A stretch of 64,000 nt of DNA from Massalongia carnosa (lineage: Eukaryota), in assembly GCA_965645245.1 (NCBI GenBank), contig OZ287078.1, forward strand, positions 124,001 to 188,000, written 5' to 3'. Positions 18,673-25,355 of the stretch are shown here, in pieces (the stretch's first letter is position 1; each line of letters starts with the position of its first letter). The translations under genes were made by a program, and so were the position numbers. The notes beneath the pieces are model-generated. The model had not been told where the DNA came from. It ran no database searches and saw nothing but the letters and a program-made list of their open reading frames with translations.

Positions 18673-21600
18673 TTACCCACCAGACAACATTTTTGCAATC
18701 TTGTCATGTCCATTTTCCTTGGCCACCGACAGCGGAGTTTTTCCATCTATATCTTCGAGAGTACGATCTGCCCCTGCTGTCAGCAATAGTCTCACGATAT
18801 TTTCGCTACCTCCTGCTGCTGCCCAAAAGATAGGAGGCCGCCCAGATATGCTCTCCGCATTGACGTCGACAATTTTAGTAAAGAGTAGTAGTTGAACTAC
18901 TCTAAGGTGGCCATTTGCTGCGGAAATCCAAAGTGGAGACACATGCCGAGAATTTTTTAGATCAGGTTTGACCCCTTCTGTTAGTAGTTTTTGGATTGTA
19001 TCCGCCTTTCCAAATTTTGCTGCGTTATAAAACTGGGCGATCGACCATTCTTCTTTAGAAGGGGAGATCTTAAACTTTTCTTCGATTATTTTTAAGACCC
19101 CATCTTGCCCGCATGTCGCAGCTGCCTTCACCACCTCTTCCGTAATCATTACATCTGCCCCGCGCTGCTCAAGCAAGAGCGTCATCACCTCTTTCCCATT
19201 TGCCTCATTTCCCGCCGCTGCCTTCACCACCTCTTCTGTAATCATCACATCTGCCCCGCGCTGCTCAAGCAAGAGCGTCATCACCTCTTTCCCATTCCCG
19301 AAATTTCCCGCCGCTGCCTTCACCACCTCTTCCGTAATCATCACATCTGTCCCGCGCTGCTCAAGCAAGAGCGTCATCACCTCTTTCCCATTTTCCTCAT
19401 TTCCCGCCGCTGCCTTCACCACCTCTTCCGTAATCATCACATCTGCCTCGCGCTGCTCAAGCAAGAGCGTCATCACCTCTTTCCCATCCCAGAAATTTCC
19501 CGCCGCTGCCTTCACCACCTCTTCCGTAATCATTACATCTGCCCCGCGCTGCTCAAGCAAGAGCGTCATCACCTCTTTCCCATTTGCCTCATTTCCCGCC
19601 GCTGCCTTCACCACCTCTTCTGTAATCATCACATCTGCCCCGCGCTGCTCAAGCAAGAGCGTCATCACCTCTTTCCCATTCCCGAAATTTCCCGCCGCTG
19701 CCTTCACCACCTCTTCCGTAATCATCACATCTGTCCCGCGCTGCTCAAGCAAGAGCGTCATCACCTCTTTCCCATTTTCCTCATTTCCCGCCGCTGCCTT
19801 CACCACCTCTTCCGTAATCATCACATCTGCCTCGCGCTGCTCAAGCAAGAGCGTCATCACCTCTTTCCCATCCCAGAAATTTCCCGCCGCTGCCTTCACC
19901 ACCTCTTCCGTAATCATCACATCTGCCCCGCGCTGCTCAAGCAAGAGCGTCATCACCTCTTTCCCATTCCTGGAATTTCCCGCCGCTGCCTTCACCACCT
20001 CTTCCGTAATCATCACATCTGCCCCGCGCTGCTCAAGCAAGAGCGTCATCACCTCTTTCCCATTTTCCTCATTTCCCGCCGCTGCCTTCACCACCTCTTC
20101 CGTAATCATCACATCTGCCCCACGCTGCTCAAGCAAGAGCGTCATCGCCTCTTTCCCATCCCAGAAATTTCCCGCCGCTGCCTTCACCACCTCTTCCGTA
20201 ATCATCACATCTGCCCCGCGCTGCTCAAGCAAGAGCGTCAGCACCTCTTTCCCAAACATCCTTGCAATTGTCTTCACCACCTCTTCCGTAATCATCACAT
20301 CTGCCCCGCGCTGCTCAAGCAAGAGCGTCAGCACCTCTTTCCCATTCCCGAAATTTCTCGCCGCTGCCTTCACCACCTCTTCCGTAATCATCACATCTGC
20401 CCCGCGCTGCTCAAGCAAGAGCGTCATCACCTCTTTCCCATTCCCGAAATTTCTCGCCGCTGCCTTCACCACCTCTTCCGTAATCATCACATCTGCCCCG
20501 CGCTGCTCAAGCAAGAGCGTCATCACCTCTTTCCCATCCCAGAAATTTCCCGCCGCTGCCTTCACCACCTCTTCTGTAATTATCACATCTGCCCCGCGCT
20601 GCTCAAGCAAGAGCGTCAGCACCTCTTTCCCAAACATCCTTGCAATTGTCTTCACCACCTCTTCCGTAATCATCACATCTGCCCCGCGCTGCTCAAGCAA
20701 GAGCGTCATCACCTCTTTCCCATTTTCCTCATTTCCCGCCGCTGTCTTCACCACCTCTTCCGTAATCACTACATCTTCCCCGCGCTGCTCAAGCAAGAGC
20801 GTCATCAACTCTTTCCCACTTCGCTCATTTCCTGCCGCTGCCTTCACCACCTCTTCCGTAATCATCACATCTGCCCCGCGCTGCTCAAGCAAGAGCGTCA
20901 TCACCTCTTTCCCATTCCCGAAATTTCTCGCCGCTGCCTTTACCACCTCTTCCGTAATTATCACATCTGCCCCGCGCTGCTCAAGCAAGAGCGTCATCAC
21001 CTCTTTCCCATCCCAGAAATTTCCCGCCGCTGCCTTCACCACCTCTTCTGTAATCATCACATCTGCCCCGCGCTGCTCAAGCAAGAGCGTCATCAGCTTT
21101 TTTCCACTTCTGGAGTTCTCCGCCGCTGCCTTCACCACCTCTTCCGTAATCACTACATCTGCCCCGCGCTGCTCAAGCAAGAGCGTCATCACCTTTTTCC
21201 CATTCCAGTAATTCCCCGCCGCTGCCTTCACCACCTCTTCCGTAATCATCACATCTGCCCCGCGCTGCTCAAGCAAGAGCGTCATCACCTCTTTCCCATT
21301 CCCGAAATTTCTCGCCGCTGCCTTCACCACCTCTTCCGTAATCATCACATCTGCCCCGCGCTGCTCAAGCAAGAGCGTCAGCACCTCTTTCCCATTCCTG
21401 GAATTTCCCGCCGCTGCCTTCACCACCTCTTCCGTAATCATCACATCTGCCCCGCGCTGCTCAAGCAAGAGCGTCATCACCTCTTTCCCATTCCTGGAAT
21501 TTCCCGCCGCTGCCTTCACCACCTCTTCCGTAATCATCACATCTGGCCCGCGCTGCTCAAGTAAGAGCATCATAACTTGTTTCCCCTTTTCCTTATTTCC

Positions 21601-24128: not shown

Positions 24129-25355
24129 ATGGCCGAACCGTACGGATTAGGCGAACCCCTCTTTGATTCTCTAGACGCGAATATAGAGTACGCACCAGAT
24201 GTCATTTCTCGTCCGGGTTGCTTTGTATTGACCAAACAGTATTGTCTTCGTCCACGGGCTCGGCGGCGACAGTGTGAAAACTTGGACATGGGAGGGTCGA
24301 GATAGATCGCTGTTGTGGCCGCAAGATCTCTTACCTAAAGCCTGCCCAACAGCTCGCATCCTTTCTTTTGGGTACAATGCGGACTTTGCTCACTTCTATC
24401 CGTTTGTTGGACCGAAATTCATCCCGGAGCATTTGACTATTGATGATCACGCGACTGCAATGTTCCAGAGCCTAATCGGTCTCCGCGAGAAAACCAAAAC
24501 TGTAGGAATCGGCGCACCCCTACCCTTTCCACCAGAAATATGCTAATAGGATGTCTATGTCTAGGCTGAACGGCCGATTATTTTCGTCTCGCGCAGCCTA
24601 GGGGGTCTCGTGTGCGCCAATGCGTTGTCAAGGCACAATGGTACCGACATTGCTAGCACTACCCTCGTAGAGAGAACGATTGGAGTCGTCTTCCTTGGAA
24701 CGCCCTTTGAGGGATCGTCAAAAGTGAAATGGGGAAGCAGGGCTCTACAGATACTGGGCTGGATAAGCACCACGCATAAGCAGGATATAAAGGATCTTGA
24801 AGAGCGTTCGGCAAAGCTCATCAGCGTTAACGAGGCCTTTCAGAAATTCCTGAAAGCACGGGATCGTTCAGAATCAAGAGAGTTTGTGGAAGTAGCTTGC
24901 TTCTTTGAACAGTATGCTATGTACAAGGGAGGGACGAAGATGGGGTTTATCGTGCCCAAGGAATCGGCTTGCCTGCCTAGTAGCGATCCACAGTCGATCC
25001 AGGCGAATCATGTTGATATGTGCAAGTTTGAGGATGAAGACCGAGAGGGATACAAGGAGAATTTCACAAAAGTTGGTTCAATGGATATCGGATCTTGATA
25101 GTCGATCCAAGGGGTCTGGAGAGGATCGCCAGGTCTGACATCTCTTTCGCTCGCTTGAAGTTAGCTGAAAATCAACAGAAACATTCGGTTCGTATGGGCG
25201 ATGTTAACTTTAGGGACAAAATCGATAACAATCGAGGTTTGATTATGGATCATGCAAACAGTACGGCCACAGACGGGGTTAGGATAACTGGAAGTGATAT
25301 CACTGTAGGGATCACCTATCCTTTCGATAGCGATGTAAAAGCTGATAGAACATGA
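24129..25355 (+). CDS. SesB-like alpha/beta-hydrolase with a C-terminal extension on its own exon; one frameshift near 25057 (possible pseudogene or sequence error)
   Basis: DIVFVHGLGG, WPQDLLP, ARILSFGYNA, RPIIFVSRSLGGLV, VFLGTPFEGS, ANHVDMCKF; introns 24189-24239, 24502-24564, 25133-25178. Confidence 0.85.

Follow-up and report, generated by a model that had tools for sequence, protein, structure and literature searches.

A divergent NLR and SesB-like hydrolase gene pair in Massalongia carnosa with a shared candidate amyloid-signalling motif in the PP register

A stretch of 64,000 nucleotides from the genome of Massalongia carnosa (GenBank assembly GCA_965645245.1, contig OZ287078.1, positions 124,001 to 188,000 of the forward strand; referred to here as the window, with all coordinates counted from its first base) contains two genes arranged head to head, a NOD-like receptor (NLR) gene at 18673-23798 on the minus strand and a SesB-like alpha/beta hydrolase gene at 24129-25396 on the plus strand. 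A similar glycine-centred peptide motif is encoded at the N-terminus of the NLR and in the C-terminal tail of the hydrolase. On the basis of sequence comparison we consider it rather likely that these two genes form an NLR/effector cluster of the kind which signals through amyloid in fungi, with a motif which follows the register of the PP motif but lacks its glutamine, and with an effector copy which is probably inactive in this genome. Profile searches and metagenome loci indicated that the motif is a family: it is found on SesB-like hydrolases from across Pezizomycotina and, in matching form, on their NLR partners.

Amyloid templating is an established route by which an NLR signals to a cell-death effector, in fungi and bacteria and, through RHIM (for RIP homotypic interaction motif), in animals. 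The published fungal amyloid-signalling systems considered here are NWD2/HET-S, PNT1/HELLP/SBP and het-eN/sesA/sesB (PMC3321046, PMC5485727, PMC7885112), and statements on these systems and their motifs follow those papers. The architecture used in PMC3321046 to recognise such clusters, namely adjacent genes, an NLR without N-terminal effector domain, and a short homologous motif at the NLR N-terminus and at the effector C-terminus, was found in the window in all its parts. The features of the two genes are listed below.

23799 to 24128: divergent intergenic region, 330 bp from start codon to start codon.
23690 to 23798, minus strand: NLR exon 1, ATG at 23798, with the NLR-side motif at about residues 15-37, N-x-G-V-V-M-G-N-I-S-G...V-I-G.
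23640 to 23689, minus strand: NLR intron 1, 50 nt, phase 1, donor GTTTTC off consensus, acceptor TTAG.
23607 to 23639, minus strand: NLR exon 2, 33 nt, reads SQTNNIVQYP and then the GC donor GCAAGT.
23505 to 23516, minus strand: candidate micro-exon of the NLR, 12 nt, reads D-D-F-E, with both flanking introns in phase 1.
23260 to 23458, minus strand: NLR exon 3, pre-NACHT segment and Walker A (GIPGSGKS), Pfam NPHP3_N E 5.5e-12.
22597 to 23208, minus strand: NLR exon 4, body of the NACHT domain, Pfam NPHP3_N E 1.2e-17, 80% identity to a Tricladium NLR.
18673 to 22540, minus strand: NLR exon 5, GPIID_WHD (winged helix), 27 DUF7104 repeats and ankyrin repeats (Pfam), stop at 18673-18675.
24129 to 24187, plus strand: hydrolase exon 1, aligns with the N-termini of homologues P0001 and P0003, donor GTACGC.
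24240 to 24501, plus strand: hydrolase exon 2, DIVFVHGLGG ..., colinear with homologues.
24565 to 25132, plus strand: hydrolase exon 3, nucleophile elbow S-R-S-L-G-G (every homologue has H-S-L-G-G), catalytic-His region ANHVDMCKF, extra G at 25056/25057.
25179 to 25304, plus strand: hydrolase exon 4, effector-side motif, three Gly-centred blocks over about 42 residues.
25305 to 25357, plus strand: intron inside the hydrolase tail, 53 nt, donor GTAGGG.
25358 to 25396, plus strand: hydrolase exon 5, NTYHGINPKGSV and then the stop, aligns with P0003.

The preliminary description of this locus had placed the two genes 330 bp apart and had read an NLR N-terminus of about 47 residues without an effector domain before the NACHT region. 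The spacing was confirmed (ATGs at 23798 on the minus strand and at 24129 on the plus strand), and the 47 residues were reproduced by joining exon 1 (23798-23690) to exon 2 (23639-23607). The exons downstream gave NPHP3_N/NACHT, GPIID_WHD, 27 DUF7104 and ankyrin matches, with about 50 residues preceding the pre-NACHT segment and no N-terminal effector domain. The product has the features of an NLR, that is a NACHT-type P-loop NTPase with Walker A followed by C-terminal repeats of a superstructure-forming type, which in such receptors are often near-identical; the DUF7104 array at 19117-21626 consists of 26.3 copies of a 96-nt unit with 90% matches (Tandem Repeats Finder), and the nearest relatives of the NACHT region were fungal NACHT NLRs. 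The NLR frame stays open with or without the 12-nt micro-exon, which resembles a conserved D-G-F-E preceding the pre-NACHT segment in NACHT_N-type relatives and is put forward as a candidate exon on that likeness.

The model for the first two NLR exons is supported by homology. A metagenome locus (L001) contains counterparts of both exons about 283 bp upstream of its hydrolase gene and on the other strand, the exon 1 counterpart (L001:136-246) being 68% identical. The L001 intron has the position and phase of NLR intron 1 with a donor GTGAGC and a branch site CTAAC, and the counterpart of exon 2 reads SQTNNNYYP and is followed by the canonical donor GTAAGT; it is these canonical signals at matching positions and phases which support the model. 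The same locus encodes a hydrolase with 84% identity to P0003, which stands first in the query alignment. Four related runs (X1-X4) were compared as contigs only and show no GT..AG joints; the single difference listed for them in NLR exon 2 (23629) is synonymous. A donor GTGATT for NLR intron 1 was also considered and was rejected, as the frame closes.

Exon borders of the hydrolase gene were set by alignment to homologues, which placed the end of exon 1 at 24187, and an end near 24175 was rejected. A total of 53 homologues were found, the best of them with 90% identity, and several carry the name SesB, SesB-related or DUF676 in the source databases. The window protein has both the Ser of the G/S-x-S-x-G nucleophile elbow and the His of ANHVDMCKF, and it is the homology together with these residues which identifies a SesB-like hydrolase; Pfam on the hydrolase exon in isolation gave a weak match to Hydrolase_4 (E 0.024). 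The ORF (open reading frame) 25194-25355, from which the protein end had been quoted in the preliminary description, is present as given. The last 16 residues of that quoted end (VGITYPFDSDVKADRT) are a read-through of the 53-nt intron 25305-25357. With this intron spliced out the tail aligns to the very end of P0003, and base 25308 is G>A in all four related runs, which gives a donor GTAAGG.

A hidden Markov model (HMM) of the effector tail was built from 19 hydrolase tails of other organisms, none of them from the window, and was run on the window in six frames (2937 pieces). Of these the hydrolase tail ranked first (70.2 bits, E 1.3e-20) and the ORF containing NLR exon 1 ranked second (15.7 bits, E 0.0014, over 17 residues), followed by the hydrolase's own last exon (E 0.73), with all remaining pieces at E of 2 or above. 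The likeness of a first block in the two proteins, as it had been described, is thus beyond chance. Profile-profile comparison with hhalign of five NLR-side sequences against 14 tails gave E 4.9e-5 and a probability of 68% over 16 columns. A second shared block, described as GS-x7-YP and at the same spacing in both proteins, was not supported as written: the shared YP is an artefact, because the quoted hydrolase end runs through the intron, NLR exon 2 raised the profile score by just 0.3 bits, and the two motif blocks lie four residues closer in the NLR than in the hydrolase. With the same effector-tail HMM no third, HeLo-like partner carrying the motif was found within the 64-kb window, nor did the window contain a sesA gene with the motif. 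A short ORF directly 3' of the hydrolase stop (25378-25467, plus strand) ends in ...SQHCGVILGNYSGK and matched weakly both to the effector-tail HMM (E 2) and to an NLR-side HMM (E 0.42); this end may be what is left of another copy of the motif, or a chance likeness.

The core of the motif reads N-x-G-phi-V-phi-G (phi, hydrophobic residue), and its NLR-side form is N-x-G-V-V-phi-G-x-phi-S-G...I-G. On the hydrolase side the core sits in a tail of about 45 residues within three blocks marked by invariant Gly, and this tail is common to 20 homologues from Dothideomycetes, Eurotiomycetes, Sordariomycetes, Leotiomycetes and other groups. The tail motif was present at E<1e-3 in 33 of the 53 hydrolase homologues, and in 14 of the 34 which had not been used to train the HMM. 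A profile search of 1.84 billion cluster representatives returned 49 at E<=1e-3 and 16 at E<=1e-10; all but one of the 49 were hydrolase tails or last-exon ORFs, the remaining one being an unrelated 811-aa repeat protein. NLR exon 1, searched against a collection of 5.8 billion proteins, had as its sole match an ENA ORF (P0177, 80% identity) which reads through the intron.

A full-text literature search found no paper linking GVVMG with amyloid, and the literature from 2022 on contained no new SesB-like amyloid-signalling motif beyond the known papers. In the readable supplements of PMC9815663 there were 0 occurrences of the motif words and of 12 accessions of family hydrolases. Two NLRs given as 'noasm' in table S2 of that paper, RDL34715.1 (NOD from residue 50) and OBT51771.1 (NOD from residue 1), have accession numbers adjoining those of family hydrolases; 18 neighbouring accessions were tried and three were found.

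To look at linkage in other genomes, metagenome contigs of the Joint Genome Institute (JGI) were scanned with the hydrolase alignment, which gave 80 loci. Family tails at E<0.01 were present in L001, L003-L010, L012, L014 and L016, and a divergent neighbour with a matching N-terminus was present in L001, L002, L007, L012 and L014. The tail of a locus was then aligned by Smith-Waterman, with 60 shuffles, to every remaining ORF piece from that locus, with the following results for three of these loci.

L007: upstream opposite-strand ORF against own tail, score 86, z 15, 0/60 shuffles.
L012: upstream opposite-strand ORF against own tail, score 60, z 5.7, 0/60 shuffles.
L014: upstream opposite-strand ORF against own tail, score 51, z 5.3, 0/60 shuffles.

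Both partners in L007 carry an identical G-G-V-F-A-G-N. The motif ORF of L012 is followed by NPHP3_N/NACHT and then by GPIID_WHD and ankyrin repeats (Pfam), and that of L014 by a segment which, judged by eye, is pre-NACHT-like. By Pfam a divergent NLR is also present in L002 (NPHP3_N-Ank), L008 (NB-ARC-TPR) and L016 (NPHP3_N-Ank). In L002 and L020 an N-terminal motif close to that of the window NLR was found. A pairing test on eight loci, in which NLR motifs and tails were re-paired in 20000 permutations, gave a summed score as high as that of the own pairs in 9 of the permutations. An arrangement conserved elsewhere, in which the motifs of one cluster resemble each other more than those of other clusters, is what PMC3321046 looks for in systems of this type, and it was found here. 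Conservation and linkage of the motif in homologous pairs, which the preliminary description had named as a check, was thus positive in independent metagenome loci. In addition, two ORFs corresponding to NLR exon 1 (P0177, P0224) and two tail ORFs (P0227, P0229) come from contigs each given as 1,893,471 bases, and it is likely that in this relative both lie on one contig, adjacency apart. In L020 (61-840, minus strand) the NLR-side motif opens a 260-residue ORF with a helical-looking continuation which has no Pfam match, and this ORF may represent an N-terminus of motif plus domain.

Several observations weigh against the reading of this locus as an amyloid-signalling cluster. Among the 1.84 billion proteins there was no NLR-sized N-terminal match at E<=1e-3, and support on the NLR side comes from seven inspected loci or relatives. 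In the pairing test the own tail was the top partner in just three of the eight loci, and not in the window, its close relative or L001. The NLR exon of L001 did not match its own tail significantly (Smith-Waterman z 1.5), L016 was weak, and no significant partner motif was found in L004, L005, L008 and L017, some of these contigs being short. In the window itself the NLR donors GTTTTC and GCAAGT are off consensus and splicing of the 5' exons is predicted by homology, the motif exon of the assembled hydrolase is out of frame with the body and cannot be joined to it, and in three of the four related runs no contig links the motif exons to this NACHT body. Amyloid formation by the motif is itself a proposed property.

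Comparison with known motifs was made both with Pfam models and with published descriptions. The PP motif is a pseudopalindrome around a conserved Gln with the core G-phi-Q-phi-G (PMC3321046, PMC5485727, PMC7885112), the sigma motif consists of three repeats of GxGxQFN or GGTQNINT, and PUASM reads FxGxGxQxxGxGxF and is found on PNP_UDP effectors. About a dozen amyloid-signalling motif families are counted in PMC12261475, where Pfam models are given for PP (PF17046, named Ses_B), sigma (PF17106) and HET-s (PF11558/PF17108). The PP, sigma and HET-s models gave no match to the window peptides at E<=10 or to 20 homologues at E<=5, and a further eight motif peptides matched no known motif model in Pfam at E<=10. 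Sub-motifs of the sigma type were absent by regular expression from every examined protein and locus, and PF17106 did not match the motif peptides or the homologues in a run made without a positive control. The HET-s related amyloid motif (HRAM) is a unit of 21 residues with Gly at position 19 and hydrophobic residues at 5, 8, 10, 16 and 18, of which HeLo-type effectors usually bear two; its Pfam models (PF11558/PF17108) gave no match to the motif, in a run without a positive control and with the positional pattern unscored. A likeness to the HET-s repeat was considered and dropped as unsupported, because at E<=10 the motif profile retrieved none of the solved chains of HET-s, HELLF or RIP; three weak structure matches (a designed protein, the Mengo virus coat protein and alkaline phosphatase) were taken as chance. 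Judged by these Pfam models and descriptions, the motif probably represents a new family within a known mechanism, though it may belong to one of the unnamed motif classes of PMC9815663.

Two metagenome SesB-like hydrolases (L057:1049-1168 and L060:924-1043) have a textbook PP tail, and the same hydrolase family therefore bears at least two different terminal motifs. These tails also served as the positive control for PF17046, which matched them at 8e-14 and 51.6 bits.

Could the motif be a divergent member of the known PP (RHIM-like) family, in which the central Gln was lost in one sub-lineage? The core does lie in the PP register: hhalign aligned the NLR-side profile with a true PP tail as N-x-G-phi-[Q/V]-phi-G-x-x-x-G, which agrees with the preliminary description of a PP/RHIM-like core without the central Gln, and one family member (P0024) has G-V-Q-A-G. 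PP is moreover known on SesB-like lipases, both in SBP (PMC7885112) and in the two PP-tailed metagenome hydrolases. The hhalign alignments are however weak (E 0.019 and 0.15, probabilities of 2.4% and 0.4%), and PF17046, for all its score on true PP tails, was silent on 10 motif peptides (E<=10) and on 20 full homologues (E<=5), so that the strong PP match which would have argued against novelty was not found. The centre of the core is Val in 14 of 21 effector rows, Ile in four and Ala, Leu and Gln in one each, and it is Val in all five NLR-side rows with Gln in none, whereas PP is defined by its central Q; the window motif family thus has neither the central Gln nor the PF17046 match of PP. 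The effector version also extends over about 45 residues in three blocks and not over about 20. We regard membership of the PP family as unlikely. Even less weight is given to a non-amyloid docking or recognition motif (a beta-hairpin dock, a membrane-targeting tail or a degradation signal), or to a chance likeness in the window. It is true that the match within the window covers only 17 residues at 15.7 bits and that the peptides are of low complexity and rich in G, N and S. Against this, the sole match below E 0.7 outside the hydrolase among the 2937 pieces fell exactly at the N-terminus of the adjoining NLR, the motif takes the same position in independent loci, where it has variants particular to a locus (for example the G-G-V-F-A-G-N of L007), and the tested fungal systems of this architecture, as described in the papers cited, all use amyloid templating.

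The core architecture of an NLR/effector pair of amyloid type, as first proposed, was supported by this analysis, but the second block as written, the equal spacing and the tacit assumption of an intact pair were not. One extra G at 25056/25057 produces a +1 frameshift in hydrolase exon 3, and the body frame ends at a stop at 25096-25098; this G is missing in X2, X3, X4 and in 63% of X1 depth, and an ENA relative (P0238) is in frame across this site. Six positions which are invariant in nine close homologues are altered in the window hydrolase, including the elbow His>Arg and a motif-core Gly>Asp. The residue preceding the elbow Ser is Arg in the window (24593, G in the codon) compared with His in 20 of 20 aligned homologues and with A (His) at this base in all four related runs, and the motif core reads G-L-I-M-D compared with G-V-V-M-G in the family. 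Taken together, the frameshift, the elbow change and the core change indicate that the effector copy in this genome is probably inactive. The alternative is that the pair is intact and working, the lesions being assembly or consensus errors, or the frameshift being bypassed by splicing from a donor GTTGGT at 25072 to the acceptor before 25179 (phase 0), and this we consider possible though doubtful. The G at 24593 is found in none of the four runs, as would be expected of an error or equally of a private allele, the alternative splice would keep the frame, and no NLR exon is interrupted, although one is 3.9 kb long. However, 37% of X1 depth and three loose ends show the extra G, which is therefore supported by reads, and the bypass at 25072 would remove a conserved helix with the invariant L277 and W280. 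Six altered invariant positions also speak against an intact pair, as does the pairing matrix, in which the window tail scored lowest of eight tails against its own NLR motif (31). Runs X2-X4 lack one base at 24362, where hydrolase exon 2 has a run of T, and this loss would shift the frame of those copies at a place other than that of the window (25056/25057); the two are either independent lesions or a sign of several copies mixed in the runs.

The NLR gene is likely to have been rearranged within an intron, either by exon deletion or by a phase-keeping fusion of two NLR genes. This follows from three observations. In X2-X4 the contigs with the motif exons and the contigs with the NACHT exons part at 23527-23571, inside an intron, with a bridging contig only in X1, and a divergence at this place points to a deletion, an insertion or a gene fusion within the intron. 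The nearest NACHT relatives mostly open with a NACHT_N domain, about 300 residues long, and the candidate micro-exon matches the D-G-F-E of such relatives. None of the 120 closest NACHT relatives had a G-phi-phi-phi-G word in its first 120 residues, most of them having NACHT_N starts or truncated models. A fuller account, to which we give somewhat less than an even chance, would be that of an undescribed motif family dedicated to SesB-like lipases, with the geometry of PP/RHIM and Val, Ile or Leu in the place of Gln, present as one unit of about 20 residues on the NLR and as a three-block version of about 45 residues on the effector. On this account the window NLR may also have arisen recently by exon shuffling from intron to intron, with motif exons placed onto a NACHT_N-type body.

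Of the published systems, PNT1/HELLP/SBP of Chaetomium globosum (PNT1/HELLP in Podospora anserina) resembles the window pair in having a short N-terminal motif on the NLR and an adjoining SesB-like lipase (SBP) with a C-terminal motif, and its PP motif, which is related to the mammalian RHIM, shares the register N-x-G-phi-X-phi-G with flanking Asn and Gly. It differs in that the centre of the window family is Val, Ile or Leu and not Gln, in that the window motif is invisible to PF17046, in the length of the effector-side motif (about 45 residues in three blocks, compared with about 20 for PP) and in the receptor, which is of the NB-ARC/TPR type in PNT1 and of the NACHT/ankyrin type in the window. 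The het-eN/sesA/sesB cluster of Nectria haematococca has a NACHT-ankyrin NLR with its motif on a 5' exon set off by a small, easily missed intron, and an adjoining SesB hydrolase with a long (about 40 residues) three-part motif at its C-terminus, as found here; unlike that cluster, the window family is without the sigma sub-motifs GxGxQFN and GGTQNINT and the window is without a motif-bearing sesA. NWD2/HET-S, the model case of the proposed mechanism, likewise has one motif copy on the NLR and a longer, repeated version on the effector, but its effector is a HeLo pore-former and not a hydrolase. PUASM and the provisional 'GDQN', recent additions from fungi and precedents for a new motif of this kind, are further NLR-associated families which are each tied to one effector type and were found by gene neighbourhood; they are set apart by their descriptions, on PNP_UDP effectors and on SesA respectively, and neither pattern occurs in the motif alignments.

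From the architecture and the known systems we infer the following mechanism. Ligand-driven oligomerisation of the NLR would gather its N-terminal motifs, the gathered motifs would fold into a cross-beta nucleus, and this nucleus would template the homologous tail of the hydrolase, by which the lipase would be switched on or relocated.

The Gln of PP and RHIM is thought to form a stabilising ladder. With a core in the RHIM/PP register which lacks this residue, the role of the Gln in fold and cross-seeding would become directly testable; if the present reading is true, a 'Gln-less RHIM' experiment has already been done by nature and would provide a handle on the fold and the cross-seeding specificity of RHIM-like amyloids. 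A further motif family would also widen the catalogue, for instance by annotating short NLR N-termini which were marked 'noasm' in the 2022 survey, and lipase-only two-gene clusters without a pore-forming partner would be shown to recur. The window would also be an example of the decay or reshuffling of such loci in transposon-rich regions.

By Pfam the surroundings of the pair are rich in transposon sequences (1380-6683, 27062-32003, 33524-39046, 38748-40366, 42224-46110 and 55393-59782). The elements comprise a LINE-like endonuclease/reverse transcriptase (RT)/RNase H, two copia-like elements (gag-pre-integrase, RVT_2), a gypsy-like RT/RNase H, a MULE transposase and a further RT. Two more ankyrin-repeat ORFs are present at 13405-14394 on the minus strand and at 62402-63367 on the plus strand and are possibly pieces of other NLRs. 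An ORF at 60557-61951 on the plus strand gave a full-length match to DUF7924 (E 1.5e-59).

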